Source: Frankiaceae bacterium | Lineage (GTDB): Bacteria > Actinomycetota > Actinomycetes > Mycobacteriales > SCTD01 | Direction of reading: 5' to 3' | Assembly: GCA_031424715.1 (NCBI GenBank) | Contig: JANPHZ010000005.1 | Location: forward strand, 1 to 42,047 | Length of the DNA stretch: 42,047 nt | Part shown: one piece after another, positions 5,479 through 42,047 of the stretch | Layout: each line of letters opens with the position of its first letter | Position numbering within the stretch: position 1 is the first letter of the stretch | Position numbers and translations under genes: made by a program | The notes under the pieces: model-generated | The model's database searches: none | Told to the model about the DNA's origin: nothing | What the model saw: only the letters and a program-made list of their open reading frames with translations

Positions 5479-6264
5479 TCAAGCGATGCGACCGACCGCG
5501 TAGGTGGACGAGTAGATCCGGCGCAGCTGGACGTTCTTGCCGGCGCGCGGCGCGTCCCACATGTAGCCGTTACCGGCGTAGATGCCGACGTGGCCGTTGG
5601 AGTCCATGAAGACCAGGTCTCCGACGCGCACGTCGGCGCGGGCGATCGGGCGGGCCATGTCGCGCTGGGCGGCCGCGTTGTGCGGGAGGTTGCGCCCGAA
5701 CTGCGCGAACACGTAGCGGGTGAAGCCGCTGCAGTCGAAGGAGTTCGGGCCGACGGCGCCGTAGACGTAGGGCTTGCCGTTGTGCCGGGCCGCCTCGTCG
5801 ACGATGCGCCGACCGAACTCCTCGACGTCGATGATGTCGGTCTGGCTGGTGGCCGTACTGCGGTAGGCGGATCCGCGGTAGTAGGCCCGGATGCGCTGGT
5901 CGCGCTTGACCGTGAGCGAGCTGCGGCCCAGGCCCTCGGAGTCGGTGCCGGCCTTGGCGATCGTGCGCCAGCCGCGACCCTCGGGGATCTGGATCTCGAC
6001 GATGCCGTTGCGGACGTACTCACCGTCGCTGGTCAGGCGCACCGTGACCGGCGCCTGGCCCGGCGGAATGGGCCGGGCGGGAGCGGCGACCCGCACCGCA
6101 GCGGTGGTGGGTTCGGCAGCGTGGGCGGGGGTGGTGGCGGCCAGCGGGATCAGGAAACCGCCGACGGCCGAGGCGGCGGCCACCCGGCCGGGCACCTGGG
6201 ACGGACGGGCGTGCTTGGGCTGGTGGGCGGGCAGGGCATGGCGAGCCCGCTTGGGGTTGCGCAT
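5479..6264 (-). CDS. NlpC/P60 (C40) peptidoglycan endopeptidase, secreted
   Basis: The C-terminal domain has the catalytic Cys context DCSGFTRYVF and HVGIY. The N-terminus is signal-like (VGGFLIPLAATTPAHA). I chose the start at ATG 6264 (MRNPKRA...); the longer track start at 6417 would run through the riboswitch-like leader. Confidence 0.85.
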   Translation of the reverse strand: MRNPKRARHALPAHQPKHARPSQVPGRVAAASAVGGFLIPLAATTPAHAAEPTTAAVRVAAPARPIPPGQAPVTVRLTSDGEYVRNGIVEIQIPEGRGWRTIAKAGTDSEGLGRSSLTVKRDQRIRAYYRGSAYRSTATSQTDIIDVEEFGRRIVDEAARHNGKPYVYGAVGPNSFDCSGFTRYVFAQFGRNLPHNAAAQRDMARPIARADVRVGDLVFMDSNGHVGIYAGNGYMWDAPRAGKNVQLRRIYSSTYAVGRIA

Positions 6265-6271
6265 GACGGTC

Positions 6272-6492
6272 GAGACCTCTCGTGCGCCTGCGGGGTGAGC
6301 TGTCGGGCTCGGGCGGAGAGTGCCCGGCAGCCGGTGGTCCGGCTGCTTAGCCCCGAGGCCGTCCTGGTTGCGGACCGGCCGTGGAGAGGTGGTTCCCCCG
6401 TTCCCGCCCAGGGACATGGGAGCGCCTGTCAGGGACCAGGGGCGGGACTCGGCGTCTGGTCGGCGCGGTTCGGCTTCCAGTCTGCGCGATGA
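6272..6492 (-). promoter_or_regulatory. ydaO/yuaA-type cyclic-di-AMP riboswitch candidate in the NlpC/P60 leader
   Basis: The minus-strand leader contains ACGGGGGAACCAC (plus 6389-6401) and CGGGGCUAAGC. Its 3' block is CCCGAGCCCGACAGCUCACCCCGCAGGCG (plus 6285-6313). This matches my recollection of the conserved ydaO 3' block (CCGAAUCCGACAGCUAACCUCGUAAGCG). It ends about 15 nt before the RBS/ATG. Boundaries are approximate. Confidence 0.65.
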
Positions 6493-12853: not shown

Positions 12854-13525
12854 ATGAGCCCCAAGCGCACTGTCCGCCCCGCTTTGACCGTGAGCGTCGC
12901 CTTCCTGCTGGCGATGGGTGCCAGTGGGGTCGCGGCTTCTGCCGTGTACGCCGACTCCAGCCCGAGCCCTGCAGCGAGCAGTCCCGCCGGGACCGAGCCG
13001 ACCTTCACGCTGGTGAGTGACAGTCCCGGGAGCTTCCAGCTGACCCTGACCGTGCCGGGGACGTCGATCGCGGTGACCTACGCGGTCGACGCGCTCGGTG
13101 CGGTGACGTCGGCGAGCACCAGCACTGTCGGCGCGTCGGTGAGCTCTGAGGGTGACGAGCTCACCCTCAGCTTGGCGGACGGGCGGATCGTCGAGGTGGA
13201 GCTGGGCACGAGCGGCACCACCGTCGATGAGGTCGAGGTCGAGGAGCCGGACGAGGACAGCGACAGCGAGGGTGACGACACCGATACCGACAGCGACGAC
13301 AGCGACAGCGACGACAGCGACAGCGACAACAGCGACAGCGACGACACCGACAGCGACGACAGCGACGCTGATGAGGACGCTGCGGACAGCGACGAGAGCG
13401 ACGACGCCGGGACCCCCGACGCAGACGAGGACGACGAGTCCGGCACCGACTCCACCAGCTCCGACAGCGACACCGAGACCGACACCGGGGCTGACTCGGA
13501 CAGCGGCTCCGCCAGCGACGACTAG
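12854..13525 (+). CDS. Secreted protein with an extreme Asp/Ser/Thr-rich acidic repeat tail
   Basis: Signal peptide MSPKRTVRPALTVSVAFLLAMGASGVAASAVYA. A ~110-aa Ser/Thr/Val-rich domain follows. The last ~95 aa are almost only D/S/T/E/G/A (DSDSEGDDTDTDSDDSDSDDSDSDNSDSDDTDSDDSDADED...). Confidence 0.75.
   Translation: MSPKRTVRPALTVSVAFLLAMGASGVAASAVYADSSPSPAASSPAGTEPTFTLVSDSPGSFQLTLTVPGTSIAVTYAVDALGAVTSASTSTVGASVSSEGDELTLSLADGRIVEVELGTSGTTVDEVEVEEPDEDSDSEGDDTDTDSDDSDSDDSDSDNSDSDDTDSDDSDADEDAADSDESDDAGTPDADEDDESGTDSTSSDSDTETDTGADSDSGSASDD
13256..13367 (+). repeat. Coding microsatellite-like tract, (GAC/AGC)n with GACAGCGAC units
   Basis: Uninterrupted run of GACAGC / GACGAC / GACACC triplets encoding the D-S repeat. 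It produces spurious ORFs in the other frames and strand. Confidence 0.85.
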
Positions 13526-34486: not shown

Positions 34487-34602
34487 TCAGGCGGAGGAGA
34501 CGTGGCTCGCCGCGGTGACGGAGGCTGTGACGACGTCCTTCTGCACGTCGATGACCAGCAGCGCGGTGTTGGGGCGATCTAGCAGTCTCGTCATGCCGGT
34601 CA
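34487..34602 (-). pseudogene. 5' fragment of an isochorismatase/cysteine-hydrolase family gene
   Basis: MTGMTRLLDRPNTALLVIDVQKDVV... matches the family N-terminus (ALLVIDVQ). The reading stops after 38 aa and the rest of the ~180-aa domain is absent. Confidence 0.35.
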
Positions 34603-34832
34603 TTCTTACGCGGTCGTGCCAGGTCTGGTCGTCCGATGGCCGGAGCGGAGCTCGCGTCTTCCGGTCAGCTTCTGCAGGCTCCAAGGAGGTGGTCGTTCTG
34701 AGTTCTACAGCAGACGAGCCAACAGCTCGCGAGTGTTCCAGTTGACGCTGACAGCACCGACCGCGACCCCACCCGCAGGGTGCCTGGGGGGTACAAAGGG
34801 GACTATCTGATTCCGACGCTGGGAGTTCCCGC

Positions 34833-36362
34833 ATGCAGTCGTCACGCCGTACCGGTGCACTCCTCGGTCTGCTCTGCCTCGGTCTGATCGCCACGCCGGC
34901 GCTGGCCGGTGTGGGAGCCGAAGCCGGTCCAGAACGGCCCACCGGTAGTTACGACGAAACCCGGTTGCTGATCGCTTTCGATCCCGGCACCCCCGGCGAA
35001 GCGCGGCGGGCCGCGCACGCCGTAGAGGGCGCGCGCGTCGAGAACACGATCGCCAATCTCAACCTCGATGTCGTCAAGCTGCGCGACGGGCAGGACGCCG
35101 TTCAGGTCGCCGCTCGCTACGAGCGCAACCCCAACGTGGCCTACACCGACTTCAACCACAAAGTCGGACTGCTGAGCAATGACTCCTTGTACAAGGACCA
35201 GTGGGGTCTGCACAACATCGCCCAGCCTGTGACCGGCAGCTTCGTGCGAGGTGTTGTCGATGCCGACGTGGACGCACCGGAGGGATGGGCGGCTGCCTTC
35301 CCTGCGGGCATCGAGTCCAGCGGAGGGACCTTGACCGGCATTCTCGACACCGGTATCGACCGCAGTCACGTGGACCTGCTCAACCGTGCGGTCGTCTGCG
35401 CGACGGCGAATGCAGCAACAGGCATCGTCGTCGAGGGCACCTGCTCCGATGACAACCTGCACGGCACACACGTCGCGGGCACCGTGGCGGCCCTGACCAA
35501 CAACGGGGTCGGCGTCGCCGGCGTGGCCCCGAACGCCCCACTCGCGATCTTCAAGGGGCTGAACGGCGCCGGCACCGGCTTCTACGCCGACATCGTGGCC
35601 GGTATCGACTACCTCAGCGCCAAGAAGGGCGTGCCGATCATCAGCATGAGCATCGGTGGCCCTAAGGACGACGCTCTCGATCGCGTGCTCTCTCAGGCCT
35701 GGGCGCGCGGCACGCTCTTGATCGCTGCGGCTGGCAATGACGGTGACGCCACCGCCAACTACCCGGCTTTCCACCCCGACGTCATGTCCGTCGGCTCCAT
35801 TGATCAAGCCGGCCAGCGATCGAGCTTCAGCAACTGCAACAACGACGTCGAGATCGCGGCTCCCGGCGAAGACATCTGGTCGACCTTCCCGGGCAACTCC
35901 TATGGCGTCATCAGCGGTACGTCGATGGCGACCCCGCACGTCTCCGGCGTCGCGGCGATGCTCATGTCGGAGAAGGGGCTGACGGCTACGCAGACTCGGA
36001 GCACGTTGAAGAGCACGGCCCTTGGCTCCGGTGGATGCAACAACATCGGCGTCGTGAACCTTGCCAACGCCCTGGGCGCCAGCGGCGGCGGGACGGTCAC
36101 CCCGCCTCCCCCCACCGGCACCGGCACGATCGCTGGGACAGTGACCACCTCGGGGAAGAACCCGACAGTGATCTCCGGTGCGACGGTTGCTTGCGGTGCG
36201 GGTGGCAGCGCCACGACCGGCACTGATGGCCGTTACACGATTGCCTCGGTTGCGGCCGGCAGTTACACCTGCACGGCGTCCGCCCCGAACCGCACGTCCA
36301 AGTCCGCGTCGGTGACTGTCACTTCCGGCCAGACGACGACGCAGAACTACGCCCTGCGGTAA
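34833..36362 (+). CDS. Secreted S8 (subtilisin-family) serine peptidase with propeptide and a C-terminal CarboxypepD_reg-like domain
   Basis: It has a signal peptide and the Asp/His/Ser triad contexts ILDTGID, HGTHVAG and GTSMATPHVSG. The C-terminal block GTIAGTVTT...DGRYTIASVAAGSYTCTAS is a beta-sandwich pattern. Codon GC3 is noticeably relaxed. Confidence 0.9.
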   Translation: MQSSRRTGALLGLLCLGLIATPALAGVGAEAGPERPTGSYDETRLLIAFDPGTPGEARRAAHAVEGARVENTIANLNLDVVKLRDGQDAVQVAARYERNPNVAYTDFNHKVGLLSNDSLYKDQWGLHNIAQPVTGSFVRGVVDADVDAPEGWAAAFPAGIESSGGTLTGILDTGIDRSHVDLLNRAVVCATANAATGIVVEGTCSDDNLHGTHVAGTVAALTNNGVGVAGVAPNAPLAIFKGLNGAGTGFYADIVAGIDYLSAKKGVPIISMSIGGPKDDALDRVLSQAWARGTLLIAAAGNDGDATANYPAFHPDVMSVGSIDQAGQRSSFSNCNNDVEIAAPGEDIWSTFPGNSYGVISGTSMATPHVSGVAAMLMSEKGLTATQTRSTLKSTALGSGGCNNIGVVNLANALGASGGGTVTPPPPTGTGTIAGTVTTSGKNPTVISGATVACGAGGSATTGTDGRYTIASVAAGSYTCTASAPNRTSKSASVTVTSGQTTTQNYALR

Positions 36363-36494
36363 CCCCAACCGGTGCAACGAGCTTCGAAGATCCATGCGGT
36401 TGCCGTGCGCCGGTGGGCGCTGGAAGCGCTCGTCCAGCCACGCGCGTCCTCGTGAATCGCCGCAACGGTGAGCGCGACGACTTCAGGAGGGTGC

Positions 36495-37388
36495 ATGACA
36501 GGTCTGCGACTGAAGTTCTGCCCGGATGCAGCCAGCTTTCTCTCCAGTGCCGGCGGTTTCCTGGAAGCCGACCCGGTCGTCAGCACAGTCGTTGCCGGGA
36601 TCGCCCATCGGAGGCTGTCTCAGCAACGCGACGGGGTCAGTCCGGCCGACCGGGACTGGTGGCTCGTGGTGACGGATGCCGCTGGCAGCGTCGTGGGGGT
36701 GGGGATGAGGACAGCGACAACTGCGCCGTATCCCCTCTTTCTGCTTCCGATGCCCGACGAGGCAGCGGTTGCTCTGGCTCGTGTCCTTTACGCGCGAGGA
36801 GAGGAAGTGCTCGCGATCAATGGAGCCCTGCCCGCCGTACAGACGTGCGCGCAGGAGTTAGTCCAGCTGGTCGGGGGTCGCGTCGAGGTCAGTCATCACA
36901 CGCGGCTGCACGAGCTGGGGCATCTCGTACCGCCGGCGGCGACAGCCGGCGAGCTCCGGCTGGCCACTGAAAGCGATGTGGGGCTGGCCACCGAGTGGTT
37001 CGCGGCGTTCATGAGTGACGCTGACGAGCAGGCTGGGCGAGCTCGCGGGACGAGTCTGCATGAGGCTCCGGACCCAGCGGACATGCTGCGCAGAATCCGT
37101 GCCAGTCAGATCTGGCTCTGGGTGGGCGCTGATGGTCAGCCCGTGCATATGACGGGCACGAACCCGCCGGCCTTCGGGGTAGCCAGGATCGGCCCGGTCT
37201 ACACACCCCCGGCGCAACGGGGTCGCGGTTGGGCCAGTAGCGCGGTCGCCGAGGTCTCCCGCCGGCTCCAGGCGGGTGGAACTCGCGTCTGCCTGTTTAC
37301 CGACCAGGCGAATCCGACGTCGAACAAGATCTACGCGGCCCTCGGCTATGCGCCCGTCGTCGATATGGCGAACCTGGTCATGGGGTGA
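36495..37388 (+). CDS. GNAT family N-acetyltransferase (two-domain type)
   Basis: ATG 36495 follows AGGAGG. The acetyl-CoA motif is QRGRGWASSAVAEV, and the C-terminus NKIYAALGY is typical of GNAT. Confidence 0.75.
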   Translation: MTGLRLKFCPDAASFLSSAGGFLEADPVVSTVVAGIAHRRLSQQRDGVSPADRDWWLVVTDAAGSVVGVGMRTATTAPYPLFLLPMPDEAAVALARVLYARGEEVLAINGALPAVQTCAQELVQLVGGRVEVSHHTRLHELGHLVPPAATAGELRLATESDVGLATEWFAAFMSDADEQAGRARGTSLHEAPDPADMLRRIRASQIWLWVGADGQPVHMTGTNPPAFGVARIGPVYTPPAQRGRGWASSAVAEVSRRLQAGGTRVCLFTDQANPTSNKIYAALGYAPVVDMANLVMG

Positions 37389-37425
37389 GTGACGGGGCTC
37401 GAACCCGCGACAACCGGGATCACAA
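37381..37425 (-). other. tRNA-His (GUG) 3' half relic: anticodon loop through CCA, with no 5' half (putative att-type remnant)
   Basis: The minus strand reads TTGTGAT-CCCGG-TTGTC-GCGGG-TTCGAGC-CCCGT-CACTCAC-C-CCA. This parses as anticodon loop (GTG), stem strand, variable loop, T arm, acceptor 3' strand, discriminator C and CCA. No complementary GTGAGTG acceptor strand or D arm lies upstream. The relic overlaps the GNAT stop codon. Confidence 0.6.
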
Positions 37426-37516
37426 TCCTGCCACCAGCCCTCAACCAGTGTGATTTTCCCAGTGTACGCGGGATTTCTGTACACCGGGTAGCACCTGATC
37501 CAGCCCGTGTCAGGCC

Positions 37517-37538
37517 GTTTGCCCCACGTTTGCCCCAC
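37517..37538 (+). repeat. Tandem 11-nt direct repeat GTTTGCCCCAC x2
   Basis: Two exact adjacent copies lie in the region upstream of the DUF2268-like gene. Confidence 0.8.
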
Positions 37539-37603
37539 GCCCGTCATCCCTGCGAGACGAGTAATCGTTGTACTGAAAGCACGGCCCTCGTTAGTGTCCG
37601 CCC

Positions 37604-38254
37604 GTGCTGTACGTGCATCTTCTCGACACCGCGGAGTACGTCTTCTCCGACGACGAGCGCACGGTGATCAACGAGCTTGGTCGGGTCGCTGAGGCACACG
37701 TACGAGAACTCTTGCCAGCGTTGGCCGAGAAGGTGCACCTCGTCGTGGAGACCGGCTCGGCAGTCATCGACGTGACCGGCGAGGTCGGGTTCACCGCGTC
37801 ACCGACCCGGATCCACTGGACAGTCGATCAGTCGCGTGGCGTGCTGTCAGTTGCCCAGACCCACCTGCACCACATGTTGCTGCACGAGGCACACCACGCC
37901 GTACGCCTTCAGCGGTTCCCGTCGATTTACGCGACCGACTGGTACGAGGCCTCGATCATGGAAGGACTCGCGACCGCTTTCCAACGCGCCAACAGCGAGT
38001 TCGTCGCTCCCTGGGGCGAATACGCCGAAGACCAGATCGAAGAGTGGGCAAGGGAGCTCTTCGCCCAGCCGATGGACGACCGTTACCGAGAGTGGAAGTT
38101 CCAGCACAGTGACGGTCGACGATGGATCGCCTACCGGGTAGGGACATGGGTGGTTGACCAAGCAGTGCAGCGCTCCGGCAGATCCGCAGCCGACCTTGTC
38201 TGGGAGCCGACCATGGACATCGTGAACCTCGCCGGTGTCGCTAACAGCAACTGA
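37604..38254 (+). CDS. DUF2268-like predicted zinc metallopeptidase
   Basis: 216 aa from GTG 37604 with an HExxH motif (LLHEAHHAV). The overall pattern agrees with my recollection of DUF2268. Confidence 0.65.
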   Translation: MLYVHLLDTAEYVFSDDERTVINELGRVAEAHVRELLPALAEKVHLVVETGSAVIDVTGEVGFTASPTRIHWTVDQSRGVLSVAQTHLHHMLLHEAHHAVRLQRFPSIYATDWYEASIMEGLATAFQRANSEFVAPWGEYAEDQIEEWARELFAQPMDDRYREWKFQHSDGRRWIAYRVGTWVVDQAVQRSGRSAADLVWEPTMDIVNLAGVANSN

Positions 38255-38336
38255 AGTTGAAGGCGGAGCGCTGCGTTTACGCAAGCCTCACCGCAACCTC
38301 ACAAGATGCTCACGACAACTTCACCGGCGGTCCGAC

Positions 38337-38372
38337 GGGGTCGCCCGTGGGGTCGCCCGTGGGGTCGCCCGT
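38337..38372 (+). repeat. Tandem 12-nt repeat GGGGTCGCCCGT x3
   Basis: Three exact adjacent copies. Confidence 0.9.
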
Positions 38373-38477
38373 TGCCCCCAGACGGGTCGGGCGGGGCTAC
38401 GGGCGACCCTGGAAGATCTTGGTCGCCTCCGCTGCGCCCCCGTTGACCTGCGGTTTTGGGGTGGCTGGGTCGGTCGT

Positions 38478-38520
38478 GTGACCAGGTCGGGGGGCAAGCC
38501 CGACCCCCCGACCTGGTCAC
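38478..38520. repeat. Perfect 17-bp inverted repeat (G6/C6-containing hairpin)
   Basis: GTGACCAGGTCGGGGGG (38478-38494), loop CAAGCCCGA, then CCCCCCGACCTGGTCAC (38504-38520). An 11-nt piece of the right arm (CCCCCCGACCT) recurs at 38971-38981. Confidence 0.9.
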
Positions 38521-38580
38521 ACTCCCTCGTCATGACAAGAGGAAGAACGAGGGGGACATCGGGGGCGCAGCGGAGGCTCG

Positions 38581-38706
38581 GAAAAGCAGTCGAAAAAAAC
38601 TGGGCTGAGCAAGATCAACAATAGGAACCAAGAAGCAGGATCAAGATCAAGAACAAGAACAGAAAATCAAGAACGGGGCAAGGACAAGATCAACAACAGG
38701 GACGGA
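38581..38706 (+). repeat. Extreme A-rich, purine-skewed low-complexity tract with ATCAA(C/G)AA boxes
   Basis: My hand count for 38581-38700 is 60 A, 51 G+C and 9 T out of 120 nt. ATCAA(C/G)AA boxes start at 38614, 38646, 38666 and 38689. The longer 16-mers GATCAACAATAGGAAC (38613-38628) and GATCAACAACAGGGAC (38688-38703) match 14/16. Confidence 0.85.
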
Positions 38707-38742
38707 GGCAAGGGCAGGGCAGGGCAGGGCAGGGCAGGGCAG
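38707..38742 (+). repeat. (GGGCA)6 pentanucleotide repeat, G-quadruplex-type motif
   Basis: Six exact GGGCA units lie at 38712-38741, preceded by GGCAA. Confidence 0.9.
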
Positions 38743-38806
38743 ATCGTGGTGCAGGGTCGTCGGTGAGGGCGATGTGTGGTTGGCGGGCGTGGGTGCGGAT
38801 GAATGC

Positions 38807-38828
38807 CGAGGGCGAGGGCGAGGGCGAG
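38807..38828 (+). repeat. (CGAGGG)3+ hexanucleotide repeat
   Basis: CGAGGGCGAGGGCGAGGGCGAG gives a second run of four evenly spaced G-tracts on the same strand. Confidence 0.85.
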
Positions 38829-39235
38829 ATCGGGCGGGGTTCAAGCGTCGTCGGCGTGTAGGCAGTCGGGGTTGTCAACGTCGGGTGTGCCGGTGAGCTT
38901 TGAACTTCTGGGATCGCGATCTGGTGGGTGGTCGGCGTGGGGTCTGGGGCCACGCACCGTACGGCTGGCTCCCCCCGACCTCAAGGACGCTTCGCGCCGC
39001 TTCGCGGTCGGCCTTCGGCCGCTCCTTGACCTCGGGGCCCCTAGCCGGCCTGGCAGAGATTTGGGGCAGGACCTTCGGCCCTGCCTGGCGGCGCGCGGCC
39101 CCAGACGAACGGCCTCGTTGGGAGCATCGCCTACCCCCTCGACGCCACCAGCAGTAGCGGCCCTCCTCAGCGGTTCCGGTCGTCAATAGGCTGTGGCCGT
39201 GGCATCTGTGGCTCAGCCGGGCGGGTTACGGCGGC

Positions 39236-40084
39236 GTGCTTCCTAACAAGGCAATCCGGTGGGCGGAGCGGGTACTGGATGGACGAGTCACATCCACCAC
39301 CCAGTTGGCGGGCGGCCTGACCTCTTCCTGCCACCGGCTCCAGCTGTCGGATGGGCGCATAGCTGTGTTGCGTCGCTGGACCAGCGATAGGCAGCACGAC
39401 GTCTTGGAGTTCAGCGCCGCACGTGAGGCGACGGTGCTGGTCCTCCTTGAGGGCAAGTTGTGCCCGGTGCCGCTGGTCCTCGCGCGTGACGACCACGGGA
39501 GGGATTGCGATGTACCGGCCCTCATACTCAGCTTCATGCCGGGGGAGCAACCGACCCTGCAGGAACTGGGCTCCCTTGACCTGCTGGCTCTCGCGAAGGT
39601 CCTCGCGAGAGTTCACGACATTGCAGCGCCGGATGCGCTACCCGCTTTCGCTCCATGGTGCTGGCGTCACCCGCTCGGCGTGCCAATTGGCACACGCGCT
39701 GCTGAATCATGGCAACGGATCCTCGACGCCGGGATTGAGGCGGACGCGGCCAGGGAGCAAGCTGGCGACGCGCTCTTGCATGGCGACTTCCATCTTGGAA
39801 ACACGCTCTGGAAAGGCTCGCGCCTCAGCGCCGTCCTGGACTGGCCCGCAGCCTCGCGTGGTAACCCCCTAGCCGACGTCGCACGAATGGCGGGCTACCT
39901 GGACGTCTTAGCACCGGGTTTCGGCGGACGGTTTGGGCGGGCCTATACGGCGGTAACTGGCGGGATTCTCACGCCCTGGTGGGAAGCCAGGGAACTCCTT
40001 GACCGGCTCCCAGAGGACCCGAACGAGCCTCTCGACCTGACGATGTTCGACGCGCAAGTTGCGAGCGTCGCCGCTCGGCTCTGA
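39236..40084 (+). CDS. Aminoglycoside/choline-kinase-type phosphotransferase (APH family)
   Basis: 282 aa with the catalytic loop LLHGDFHLGNTLW (HGDxxxxN) followed by VLDWPAASRGNPLADVA (DW/D motif). Confidence 0.8.
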   Translation: MLPNKAIRWAERVLDGRVTSTTQLAGGLTSSCHRLQLSDGRIAVLRRWTSDRQHDVLEFSAAREATVLVLLEGKLCPVPLVLARDDHGRDCDVPALILSFMPGEQPTLQELGSLDLLALAKVLARVHDIAAPDALPAFAPWCWRHPLGVPIGTRAAESWQRILDAGIEADAAREQAGDALLHGDFHLGNTLWKGSRLSAVLDWPAASRGNPLADVARMAGYLDVLAPGFGGRFGRAYTAVTGGILTPWWEARELLDRLPEDPNEPLDLTMFDAQVASVAARL

Positions 40085-40175
40085 TGCGCCGTCTCACAGG
40101 CAAGGAGTCAACTAAACCCTGGGCAGTCCCGTTCGTGCTCGCCCGTGCAACCCTGCTCCCGTGAGAAGGCGTCAG

Positions 40176-40454
40176 ATGTGCAAGGCGTTGCTGTTGGTCG
40201 CCTCGCTGGTGGTGGTTGTCGCGTTCGCGGTTCCGGTGCGAACGGACGACTTCGGTGCTTGCGGCCTTGCCGGAACTTGGCTTACAGGACTGCTGGGCGA
40301 CCCGACTGGCCCTAGCGACCCCGACTTCGTCTACGCCGAGTACAACGCCTGTCGACTTGCTGCGCGACCTGCGCTCGCTGTCATGCTGTCGGCGGTACTG
40401 GTGTCGGTGGTCGCGGGCGGGCTGCTCGTCAGGAGTAGCCGCAGCCGCAGGTAG
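40176..40454 (+). CDS. Hypothetical small membrane protein (92 aa)
   Basis: It has an N-terminal helix MCKALLLVASLVVVVAFAV and a C-terminal helix ALAVMLSAVLVSVVAGGLLV. I recognised no family. Confidence 0.4.
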   Translation: MCKALLLVASLVVVVAFAVPVRTDDFGACGLAGTWLTGLLGDPTGPSDPDFVYAEYNACRLAARPALAVMLSAVLVSVVAGGLLVRSSRSRR

Positions 40455-40532
40455 GTGCCACGTCTGCAGCCCGGGCATGTAGGCGACGCGGGACAGGACG
40501 TGCAGAGCGCCTTCTGGACGGCAGCTGAGTAC

Positions 40533-41165
40533 CTACAGCACGTGCAAGCGGCCGCCGTCATCCCATCCGTCAGGTAGCGAAAGCGGACCCCACTCCGATG
40601 GCGGCCGGAAGGTTCGCCAGTCGCCGACTGTCTGCAGGAAGCTGGGCAAGTCCGCCATGATGGCGTCACCGGTGGAGCGGGCTAGGTCCAGTTCATCTGC
40701 CTGCAGGTGCCCCTGCTCCAACGCTGCCGACGCCTCTTCTTCGTCCTTCCACTTCGCAGTGCCGTCAGGCGAGATCGCCAGGTCGAGGTGCCAGTCACGG
40801 CTCTCGACCACCGCGCCGGACCATTCGCCGGGGCTCTCAAAGTTGACATACCAACCTGCAAACTCGCCAGCGATGAAGAAGTGGGCTACCTGGTACGGCT
40901 CGTCAGGCACGAAGACCCGAAGAACATCGGTGCCGCTCCAGGTCCGCGTCGACGTCGTCAAGTCGTCGGTGAAGCGCCGGTCCAGCGGAACGGTGCGCGG
41001 GTCCTTACCGTCCGGCGTTGCCCAGTACGACACCTCGCTGCCGACCGGAAGCCAACCCAATCGCCTGCCGGTGTCGTCCGCGACGGACCACATGGGCATG
41101 GCCGCCTGCAACCGCCCGTTGGGGTACCGGTATCGGAGCAGCAGGCGCTCTTCGCCTTCAGACAT
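40533..41165 (-). CDS. DUF402 domain protein (FomD-like nucleoside-diphosphatase fold)
   Basis: 210 aa. The block WYVNFESP...ESRDWHLDLAISPDG matches the DUF402 pattern as I recall it. Confidence 0.6.
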   Translation of the reverse strand: MSEGEERLLLRYRYPNGRLQAAMPMWSVADDTGRRLGWLPVGSEVSYWATPDGKDPRTVPLDRRFTDDLTTSTRTWSGTDVLRVFVPDEPYQVAHFFIAGEFAGWYVNFESPGEWSGAVVESRDWHLDLAISPDGTAKWKDEEEASAALEQGHLQADELDLARSTGDAIMADLPSFLQTVGDWRTFRPPSEWGPLSLPDGWDDGGRLHVL

Positions 41166-41280
41166 GTCCGCACCCTAGTGACGTACAGGGCAAGAGCCCA
41201 TGACCGCGCGGAGCGGGCGCTTCTGCTCGGCTTGCGACCGGCGCTCGTGTGAAGCCCTTGGCGCCGAGGCGGCCGGGAGC

Positions 41281-42015
41281 TCAGGCCTGGGTTCGCGGGG
41301 TCGCAACGAAGACGAATTCGCGACCAGGACGATCCGGAGCATCACGTACTTCCTCGACCACGAAACCCGCGGCATTCAGCGAGCGAATCACCTCGTCGCG
41401 CTCTCGGAACCGCAACGTGGAGTCCGAAGTCAGGACGGCGCCATCCGATGCGAACACACAGGTCGATCGGAACGACACGGCGCCGTTGGTGACCCGGACC
41501 AGATCCTCCCAGGATTCGACGACCCCAACGTCAGGGATGTCCGTCGTGATGTACGAGATGGCGCGGTTCCATTCCAGCCAAGCCTTACGCGCCGGGTCTC
41601 GTGTCTCGAAAACCAGGCGCCCCCCTGGGCGAAGCCGCTCACGGATCGCGCGCAGAGTGGCCGCCCAGTGGTCGTCCTCCACGAAGACCTGGGCGACATT
41701 CGCCGTCATGAACGCGACGTCGAACGGAGAGGCTGGCACGCTGGCAACTTCTCCGTGCAACCACTGCACCCGCTCCGCGCCTGGCTTGGCGCGCGCGACG
41801 TCCAGCGACGCAGCGGCCGGATCCACCGCGACAACGTCGACGCCACGCGCAGCAAGCAGACAGGCAAAGGTTCCGGTCCCGCACCCGATATCAAGAACCC
41901 GTTGCGCCCTGAACTCGTCGACCATCGCGACATACACCTCGAGATCGCTGCGGTCCGGGTCGAGCGGGTCGTAGATCTCGGCCAGCCGACGGGACTCGAA
42001 GATCGCGTCCGCCAT
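41281..42015 (-). CDS. Class I SAM-dependent methyltransferase
   Basis: VLDIGCGTGTFACLLA (motif I) and GGRLVFETR (post-II region) are present. Confidence 0.85.
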   Translation of the reverse strand: MADAIFESRRLAEIYDPLDPDRSDLEVYVAMVDEFRAQRVLDIGCGTGTFACLLAARGVDVVAVDPAAASLDVARAKPGAERVQWLHGEVASVPASPFDVAFMTANVAQVFVEDDHWAATLRAIRERLRPGGRLVFETRDPARKAWLEWNRAISYITTDIPDVGVVESWEDLVRVTNGAVSFRSTCVFASDGAVLTSDSTLRFRERDEVIRSLNAAGFVVEEVRDAPDRPGREFVFVATPRTQA

Positions 42016-42047
42016 GCGACCGAGAGTACGAGGGCCGAGCGGCGCTT

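Follow-up and report, generated by a model that had tools for sequence, protein, structure and literature searches.

A probable copy of a conserved non-coding cassette of small integrase islands in a Frankiaceae bacterium

The first 42,047 nt of contig JANPHZ010000005.1 from a Frankiaceae bacterium (assembly GCA_031424715.1), referred to below as the window, contain a block at 38255–39235 that the initial annotation had described as a non-coding assembly of unrelated repeat and structure motifs. Instead, the motifs are parts of one conserved, ordered cassette. It is very probable that 38283–39115 represents a complete copy of a non-coding cassette that is found at the recombination end of small tyrosine-integrase islands, a family that, in uncultured Frankiales/Mycobacteriales-like actinomycetes, uses the 3′ ends of stable-RNA genes as insertion sites. 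The same strong confidence applies to a part of this identification, namely that the last module of the window’s cassette, termed M, is a copy of a folded element that crosses phyla and also travels inside insertion sequences (ISs). The order of the cassette is four YTCAC repeats, GC-rich palindromes, a three-way hairpin termed LH, an A/purine-rich tract, a poorly conserved G-rich tract, and M.

Homologous arrays from related soil actinomycetes were found by pattern scans with conserved pieces of the cassette, in two metagenome-assembled genomes (MAGs; Mycobacteriales YX3bin30 and Actinomycetota BP_342) and in eight metagenome contigs. LH occurs in ten further loci. The host of the window is itself an uncultured actinomycete of the Frankiales/Mycobacteriales type; its HPPD protein is 91% identical to that of a Mycobacteriales MAG and 88% identical to that of BP_342, the latter of which carries two cassettes. 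The window and three loci (L125, L126, and L132) align end to end and have the whole ordered cassette in common, with conservation stopping at ~39115. Across these four loci the core hairpin LH is ~90% identical and the 3′ element M ~93% identical, so that the block is an intact copy of the cassette rather than the “decayed” remnant it had been taken for. A diverged version that includes M is present in L123, and four loci (L124, L127, L128, and L129) share a core consisting of LH and the skewed tract that follows it. In L099, M is followed by the first 40 nt of LH at the start of the contig.

The smaller motifs differ in how well they are kept. The four-site YTCAC array, at a spacing of 10–11 nt, is also found in L123, L125, and L126, and homologous cassettes have 4–6 GGGGTCSS/SSGACCCC motifs in their GC-rich block. 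Copies of CAAGATCAA are retained in L125 and L126, but their spacing is not; helical phasing of this motif was considered and dropped, as the spacing is 32 and 43 nt in the window versus ~25 and 30 nt in the relatives. The 12-mer of the GC-rich block occurs three times in the window and twice in L132, and the (GGGCA)6 and (CGAGGG)3.7 runs of the window are missing in the relatives. Because the runs are missing there and the copy number of the 12-mer varies, the simple repeats look like local slippage in the least constrained part of the cassette. An earlier suggestion that the block is a contingency locus therefore holds only in that simple-sequence runs vary; they sit in the least conserved part and resemble slippage, not a designed switch.

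Departures from the full cassette were also observed at its 3′ end. Cassettes without M have another conserved 3′ module (GGTGCTTCCGG...CCCCGACAG...TTCGAGCC), which lies ~400–700 nt past LH in L127 and L129 and is followed in L129 by tandem hairpins (GTGCCGTGAGCNAAGAACGGCAC). In L132 (~1110–1385), M is cut exactly between its long stem and its core stem and then gives way to unrelated sequence, which may mark an insertion or recombination breakpoint inside M.

The non-coding status of the block is well founded. GC by codon position is flat over 38255–39235, as against a spread of 0.3–0.4 in the flanking genes; a Pfam search of the two longest open reading frames (ORFs) in the block (38257–38481 and 38803–39189) returned no match; and indels in alignments with homologues are not multiples of three. 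The block thus shows neither the codon-position GC bias, nor the domain match, nor the frame-preserving conservation of a protein-coding gene or pseudogene, and a search for a coding gene conserved among relatives, a test set beforehand, found none. The DNA itself was checked against the Logan assembly of SRR20217182, which matches 37398–38478 at 100% and 39073–41216 at 99.9%. The ends of its contigs (L135 and L136) fall at 37398 inside a tRNA-His relic, at 38478 at the LH palindrome, and at 39073 in the M hairpin, and these three structures act as assembly breakpoints. Hence the flanks are not absent from an independent assembly, while the interior (38479–39072) lies outside its contigs; since these break inside the cassette, support for the interior comes entirely from homologous cassettes of the same order. 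A frameshifted pseudogene or an assembly artefact could be read into the ORFs of 74–129 aa that are present in the block, and into the lack of 38479–39072 in the short-read contigs. Such an explanation is extremely improbable, and is effectively excluded by the flat codon-position GC, the lack of Pfam matches, the non-triplet indels, the confirmed flanks, and the repetition of the module order in independent metagenomes and MAGs. In addition, the contig breaks fall on perfect palindromes, as is expected of short-read graph assembly.

The features of the cassette and its surroundings are listed in Table 1.

Table 1. Positions of the cassette modules and neighboring features in the window.
Feature	Position	Strand	Remarks
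tRNA-His 3′ portion	37381–37430 (upper end approximate)	−	anticodon loop with GTG, T-arm, acceptor strand, CCA; from sequence reading; att-type relic
DUF2268 gene	37604–38254		left neighbor of the block
Four direct repeats (AAC)YTCAC	starts 38287, 38298, 38309, 38320 (region 38283–38330)	+	exact 11-nt spacing; 5′ edge of the cassette
GC-rich repeat/palindrome block	38337–38409	+	GGGGTCGCCCGT x3 at 38337–38372; inverted partner 38393–38409
LH three-way hairpin, 153 nt	38425–38577	+	outer arms 38425–38442 / 38560–38577
LH perfect inner hairpin, 19 bp	38476–38494 / 38504–38522	+	
LH side hairpin	38524–38553	+	7-bp arms 38524–38530 / 38547–38553
A-rich tract, 49% A	38578–38702	+	CAAGATCAA at 38610, 38642, 38685
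G-rich, C-poor variable tract	38703–38930	+	two G-quadruplex-type motifs
Microsatellites in the G-rich tract	(GGGCA)6.4 at 38711–38742; (CGAGGG)3.7 at 38807–38828	+	
M folded element	38942–39106	+	closing stem 38942–38951 / 39097–39106; conservation spans 38928–39115
M long stem	38963–38978 / 39032–39050	+	
M core stem	TCAAGGA 38981–38987 / TCCTTGA 39023–39029	+	encloses three short hairpins (38988–39021)
M extra hairpin (GGCAGG/CCTGCC)	39065–39085	+	
APH-family gene	39236–40084		right neighbor of the block

All the motifs first noticed in the block were recovered, including the triple 12-nt repeat, the 7-bp hairpin, the A-rich tract, the (GGGCA) and (CGAGGG) runs, the GGCAGG/CCTGCC hairpin, and a partial downstream copy of an arm of the perfect hairpin (11 nt at 38971–38981). 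The perfect hairpin is likewise present, although its arms are 19 bp long rather than the 17 bp first reported. With respect to composition, the A-rich tract is the 125-nt stretch with the highest A content in the 42 kb (mean 0.147, standard deviation 0.038), the purine fraction peaks in the 300 nt from ~38550 (0.72 versus 0.51 ± 0.03), and the GC skew of the window reaches its maximum at 38651 (0.44 versus 0.02 ± 0.08). A sliding-fold scan of 838 segments placed both extremes of structure here: the 150 nt at 38401 are the most stable of all (GC-corrected z −3.8), and the lowest degree of structure is that of the purine tract (z +3.4 to +4.0). Since the most and the least stable segments both lie in the block, it is not uniformly structured but extreme in both directions. 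The density of structure had been called exceptional, which is correct for the most stable 150 nt and for the tandem repeats (~13-fold enriched, with 8 of 42 rows within 0.73 kb) but not for the block as a whole, whose mean fold z of +0.2 is average. GATC is enriched only ~3-fold in the block.

LH folds with a minimum free energy (MFE) of −111.5 kcal/mol (z −9.5), and its length ranges from 148 to 155 nt across the window, L125, L126, and L132. Its outer 18-bp arms (GCCTCCGCTGCGCCCCCG and its complement) are invariant in eight homologues. The inner stem (19–20 bp) keeps perfect complementarity with 4–6 pairs changed on both sides, and neither one-sided nor G-U changes occur in the eight homologues. 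No target-site duplications were found to flank the eight LH copies. The element is rare, with three matches in ~185,000 genomes and eight in a metagenome scan, and every match with visible context adjoins a stable-RNA gene or an integrase. BLAST against plasmid and phage records returned no LH match. The tract that follows LH is poorly conserved in sequence, but in nine of nine cassettes the first 300 nt past LH have a GC skew of +0.19 to +0.40 and a purine content of 57–70%; the 300 nt before LH (skew −0.13 to +0.17) are mostly without such a bias. As the bias persists in all nine cassettes despite poor sequence conservation, it is the composition of this tract, on one strand, and not its sequence that appears to be constrained.

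M is ~175 nt long and has a core composed of TCAAGGA, two 3–4-bp hairpins, a variable hairpin, and TCCTTGA. BLAST and pattern scans located this core in >119 places in Alphaproteobacteria, Betaproteobacteria, Acidobacteriota, Myxococcota, and Actinomycetota, often in multiple copies and at contig ends. In an alignment of 24 sequences, 90.6% of cells conform to the pairing, versus 79.0% in shuffled and 32–50% in slid alignments; 19 pairs are changed on both sides, and none of 500 shuffles reaches the observed values. A partner-shuffle test agrees with this result, with the proviso that the core helices are invariant partly since the search pattern fixed them. Among close relatives, both the long stem and the core stem show compensatory changes, the latter from GGA/TCC to GAG/CTC. 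Read together, the covariation in LH and M shows selection on pairing. With regard to strand, the plus strand of M has recurrent U-G pairs (in 9 and 6 of 24 sequences at two positions) and isolated G:T outnumber A:C combinations by 37 to 15, while MFE does not differ between strands; the evidence weakly favors the plus strand.

The window has a single copy of M, and among representative genomes only L099 was found to have closer copies of the window type. In other genomes, M occurs in several near-identical non-coding copies, as is typical of miniature inverted-repeat transposable elements (MITEs) and REPIN-like repeats. For example, several copies each are present in Nocardioides MAG E1, in a ‘Sphingomonas’ MAG, and in the Acetobacteraceae chromosome OZ255625.1. 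Inverted stems at the termini close LH as well as M. BLAST with the whole block against plasmids and phages matched six plasmids, in each case through M only, and no phage, while scans of viral contigs gave two M matches and no LH match. At the gathering thresholds of Rfam 15, neither LH nor M had a match in the window or in 14 homologous loci; the best sub-threshold match was DUF3800-IV on an alphaproteobacterial M (30.6 versus 60.7 bits), a generic GC hairpin hit of the kind given by microRNA-precursor models. Searches of these loci at E-value thresholds likewise added nothing beyond generic hairpins of the microRNA type. A role of M as a 5′ leader or riboswitch was considered and rejected, because no consistent ORF follows it. 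In an actinobacterial MAG, solo copies of M (L004, L106, and L116) are flanked by short tandem repeats, with a 17-nt CTCACCGGGT-type unit upstream and a ~75-nt unit downstream; these flanks echo the repeat-rich flanks in the window.

Wherever its context is visible, the cassette either lies no more than ~1.5 kb from where a tRNA or RNase P RNA gene ends or adjoins a tyrosine integrase. For instance, L126 has a tRNA-Met gene, an integrase, and the cassette, followed by LanC-like, NUDIX, and ribbon-helix-helix (RHH) genes, with a perfect 43-nt repeat of the tRNA 3′ end located 6.5 kb away. L129 has an RNase P RNA gene, a cassette without M, YoeB, DUF1841, and DUF6188 genes, and a tyrosine integrase, and 25 nt of the 3′ end of the RNase P RNA are repeated 5.7 kb away. 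These two islands are thus delimited by direct repeats. Four more loci present an RNase P RNA gene and then the cassette (L124), a tRNA-Met gene and then the cassette (L127), a tRNA-Ala gene, an integrase, and the cassette (L123), or a tRNA-Arg gene, an integrase, a DUF5677 gene, M, and then LH at the contig start (L099). The cassette is co-oriented with the adjacent stable-RNA gene in all six loci that have one. Its place relative to the integrase varies, being upstream, downstream, or across the attachment (att) site. These homologues beside integrases and stable-RNA gene ends bear out the proposed tie between the block and an integrative element. In two unrelated assemblies (L124, 39–426; L129, 4566–4975), an island comes next after the gene for RNase P RNA, and this gene seems to serve as an integration site, since the L129 island is bounded by the 25-nt direct repeat of the gene’s 3′ end and has its integrase at the far end. 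The integrases of carrier islands share only 28–31% identity, as compared to 82–90% for LH; this disparity implies that the islands swap the cassette with one another or that a conserved partner constrains it.

The window fits this setting in part. The tRNA-His att-like relic reported near the block was confirmed on the minus strand, with its 3′ end at 37381, and the cassette is 0.85 kb away from the relic. Neither ARAGORN nor Rfam called a complete tRNA at the fragment, and the window has no second copy of the tRNA-His 3′ end (25 nt) and no other cassette pieces. The stop codon of a GNAT gene (36468–37388) lies within the CCA/acceptor end of this opposite-strand fragment, at 37381–37388, and a perfect 11-nt x2.2 tandem repeat (CGTTTGCCCCA) is located at 37516–37539, between the relic and the DUF2268 gene. 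From 34.8 kb on, GC at third codon positions falls from ~0.9 to 0.73–0.82, and overall GC drops from ~0.72 to ~0.66 over 34500–42047. This region looks like an acquired island with genes for an S8 peptidase, GNAT, DUF2268, APH, and DUF402 proteins, and a methyltransferase. By the geometry of the relic, the island lies to the right of it and past the end of the window; the low-GC region begins ~2.9 kb to its left, a hint of insertions in tandem or of an older date. The 42 kb yielded no homologue of an integrase or transposase, a search of representative genomes with the DUF2268 protein found no relatives, and look-ups by exact protein identity retrieved two short contigs from the same sample and nothing else.

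M is also a resident of ISs. In ISL3 elements (26 loci) it follows the left inverted repeat and precedes the transposase start codon, and in IS21 it lies 232 nt inside the element end, downstream of istB. A 1.24-kb IS110/IS1111-like element of Alphaproteobacteria, present in four copies, has M between the transposase stop codon and the element boundary, which is its only long non-coding region. The transposase of this element (334 aa) scores above the cut-off for ‘IS110 family RNA-guided transposase’, and nine loci share the layout of transposase and then M. The element (L028, L032, and L097) has a palindromic repeat as its insertion site, with GGGGATCTC... to either side, and its right target flank (CTTGAC-A-GCGAAC) was observed to resemble a shortened piece of M. 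In an actinobacterial MAG (L050), an IS110 unit is inserted beside M in an M-bearing repeat, and M continues in solo copies; judging from this arrangement, M is the insertion target there. Nocardioides-type MAGs also have isolated copies of M, which are placed between housekeeping genes. Whatever the IS context, the plus strand of M runs antisense to the gene for the transposase.

The layout of the 1.24-kb element raises the question of whether M is an orphan guide RNA (bridge/seek RNA) gene of an IS110/IS1111-type RNA-guided transposase. IS1111 elements encode their seekRNAs in the long non-coding stretch that follows the gene for the transposase (PMC11187229), and M occupies that very position in the four copies of the element and in the nine loci with its layout, next to proteins above the RNA-guided transposase cut-off. 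Like a bridge RNA, the alphaproteobacterial copies of M sit in the long non-coding end of a DEDD-transposase element, but the window copy does not, and tblastn with two IS110 transposases found no homologue over the 42 kb. The scaffold of a bridge RNA would be expected to co-evolve with its transposase; here one M core accompanies two adjoining IS110 transposases that share only 25% identity, without covariation with transposase clade. In addition, the U-G bias favors the strand that is antisense to the transposase gene rather than the sense strand expected of a seekRNA (MFE being equal on the two strands), M is the apparent target in L050, and M is internal to ISL3 and IS21 elements as well. 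A check for guide-target pairing in the non-coding region yielded two 6-nt target matches and one 7-nt donor-junction match, which are within chance. Because the transposases are so divergent and the guide-target matches are at chance level, M is not filed here as a bridge or seek RNA, and that assignment is considered highly improbable.

Among described systems, the closest documented analogue of M is ssr9/MITEPpu9, a structured-RNA module downstream of the transposase of ISPpu9 (IS110 family) in Pseudomonas putida that also occurs solo and is thought to hitch-hike (PMC12288879). M is likewise both transposase-linked and solo. However, ssr9 is limited to a few P. putida strains and bounded by A′/B′ boxes, whereas the core of M is ~90% identical across Alphaproteobacteria, Acidobacteriota, Myxococcota, and Actinomycetota and is found in ISL3 and IS21 elements and in integrase islands; the two are set side by side by description, not by sequence. 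M also resembles repetitive extragenic palindromes (REPs), their compound forms (BIMEs and REPINs), and MITEs in being an imperfect long hairpin that is multi-copy, intergenic, and an insertion site of the IS110 family. REPs, in contrast, are lineage-specific, while M keeps an invariant four-way-junction core across phyla and its outer stems covary. Unlike MITEs and REPs, M has neither an identified target duplication (which was not looked for systematically) nor an identified dedicated transposase.

As to what the cassette does, the reading favored here, and tentatively so, is that it may comprise a regulated promoter region followed by a strand-specific, structured RNA locus on the plus strand. 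On this reading, it would be a regulated transcription unit for a non-coding RNA of ~0.7 kb. The phased YTCAC repeats and GC palindromes would be putative protein-binding operator/promoter sites, and the RNA would start near 38420 with the very stable LH junction, continue through a linker that, being purine-rich and C-poor, should be largely unstructured and Rho-insensitive, and end with the M domain. Such an RNA would presumably serve the island, either by controlling its excision or maintenance or by acting as a primer or a decoy; a host role is unlikely. Order and orientation are the same in L123, L125, L126, and L132, and the tract after LH is the least foldable of the window. This reading is placed ahead because it best joins the strand-specific features, namely composition, the U-G bias of M, and co-orientation with upstream RNA genes. 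An origin or recombination region and a structured-RNA locus had both been put forward in the initial annotation, and the present evidence is compatible with each.

Several observations weigh against an RNA locus. A consensus scan, which covered sigma-70-type sites only, found no promoter or terminator. The inner stem of LH has Watson-Crick changes only, with no G-U intermediates, and the sequence of the 18-bp arms is invariant, a pattern for which a DNA palindrome, or an inverted repeat recognized by a protein, is no worse a fit than an RNA helix. For M, MFE is equal on both strands, and its plus strand is antisense to the transposase in IS elements, so that its role there need not match its role in the cassette. 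L099 has the order M and then LH, and the modules are therefore separable. Finally, the cassette of the window is opposite in orientation to the tRNA-His relic, unlike the cassettes of the six other loci.

These points lead to two rival explanations. It is possible, if somewhat doubtful, that the cassette is a DNA-level cis site of the island, such as a replication origin of the excised circle, a site for DNA transfer (an origin of transfer, oriT, or a TraB loading site resembling clt, a transfer locus that acts in cis), or an extended att/arm region to which integrase, an excisionase, or architectural proteins of the host would bind. A site of this kind best explains the invariant 18-bp inverted arms of LH, its perfect 19–20-bp palindrome with Watson-Crick double changes only, the phased repeats, and the lack of replication and transfer genes in islands that do have an integrase, since mobilization of such islands would need a cis site. 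The constant placement within ~1.5 kb of an att site or stable-RNA gene end is in keeping with it, as are the four repeats at helical (10–11 nt) spacing and the 4–6 GC-rich 8-mers in both orientations, which resemble protein-binding arrays, and the A-rich tract, which tops all 125-nt stretches of the window. Moreover, LH is far better conserved than the integrases, pointing to a conserved trans-acting or host partner. The TRS (TraB recognition sequence) of pSVH1 is GACCCGGA, which the GGGGTCSS repeats of the cassette resemble only partly. TraB loads on clustered 8-bp repeats, and clt-like sequences can mobilize chromosomal DNA (PMC4170104, PMC3429521). The cassette shares with clt regions and with oriT-only mobilizable islands a non-coding region, clustered short GC-rich and inverted repeats, and an integrative element without its own transfer machinery, but it differs in that no traB or relaxase gene is nearby in the genes scanned. 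Indeed, no Rep, relaxase, or TraB gene was found in the window or in the sequenced parts of homologous islands, the nearest being a sub-threshold NikA-like match in L126, and similarity to plasmid and phage records is limited to M. The spacing of CAAGATCAA and the position relative to the integrase both vary between cassettes, and binding of double-stranded DNA leaves the strand composition after LH and the U-G bias of M unexplained. As for attP arms, one island integrase carries an arm-binding domain, and in L126 the YTCAC array lies past the integrase gene, ~1.4 kb from the tRNA end. LH itself, to judge by its settings, cannot be the att core, because the islands target four different RNA genes.

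The other rival, which is unlikely, is selfish accretion without any island function, in which a tolerant spot would have collected slippage repeats together with LH and M, these two being non-autonomous mobile elements of miniature size or else targets of ISs. It explains the separability of LH and M and the links to ISs, and it has a precedent in the hitch-hiking of ssr9/MITEPpu9 on ISPpu9 (PMC12288879). M fits it well, being multi-copy in several genomes, often at contig ends, solo between housekeeping genes in Nocardioides-type MAGs, and associated with ISL3, IS21, IS1111-like, and inserted IS110 units. It is also optional in cassettes and precedes LH in L099, and the microsatellites are specific to the window. 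LH, for its part, has transposon-like perfect terminal inverted repeats, but it is rare and not scattered, all matches with context being beside a stable-RNA gene or integrase; its copies lack flanking target-site duplications; and its flanks (the YTCAC array and the skewed tract) are conserved along with it. The covariation in LH and M, which shows selection on pairing, is likewise at odds with mere accretion.

A more specific form of the RNA reading is distinctly improbable but worth stating. LH, the C-poor linker, and M could together constitute a large (~0.7 kb), undescribed island RNA that uses a universal host machine, possibly as a Rep-independent origin that is primed by RNA or works through an R-loop, in which M would be the priming or primosome-type hairpin. 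This would explain islands without a replication gene, a linker conserved in composition and not in sequence, and a near-invariant M core in unrelated hosts. Circular transposition intermediates have been reported for IS110/IS1111, ISL3, and IS21 elements, the IS families with which this RNA would share M as its 3′ domain. Origins of the ColE1 type are RNA-primed, and, by analogy only, the cassette resembles them in having stable stem-loops followed by a G-rich non-template tract, which favors R-loops. Mycobacteria also use hairpin-only (‘I-shaped’) terminators; LH is similar, again by analogy only, in that it is a hairpin of great strength, lacks a U tract, and lies downstream of RNA genes with high expression.

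Two other features of the window were recorded at a distance from the block. A c-di-AMP (ydaO-type) riboswitch is present on the minus strand at 6270–6431 (Rfam score of 41.1 versus a gathering threshold of 38 bits), at the 5′ end of the minus-strand ORF 5479–6417, whose mechanically called start overlaps it. A 15-nt/6-nt tandem repeat (CGACAGCGACGACAG x5.3) at 13256–13405 lies inside ORF 12854–13525 and appears to be coding low-complexity sequence.

Non-coding regions that act in cis in integrative elements, and structured repeats that accompany ISs, are familiar classes of sequence. LH and M, however, match no curated RNA family, LH matches no plasmid or phage record, and a full-text literature search aimed at IS-associated RNAs, bridge/seek RNAs, rnpB integration sites, and clt returned no description of either. 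If functional, the cassette would mark the recombination end of small actinobacterial islands that are otherwise annotated as “integrase plus hypothetical genes”, and the islands that carry it point to the RNase P RNA gene as an insertion site. Were it only selfish DNA, it would still explain breaks in short-read assemblies. M is the more general lead, as an element of ~170 nt with strong covariation and no Rfam family that occurs in at least four phyla and three IS families; it could regulate as an antisense RNA, serve RNA-guided transposases as their target or guide, or bind a host factor as a hairpin.

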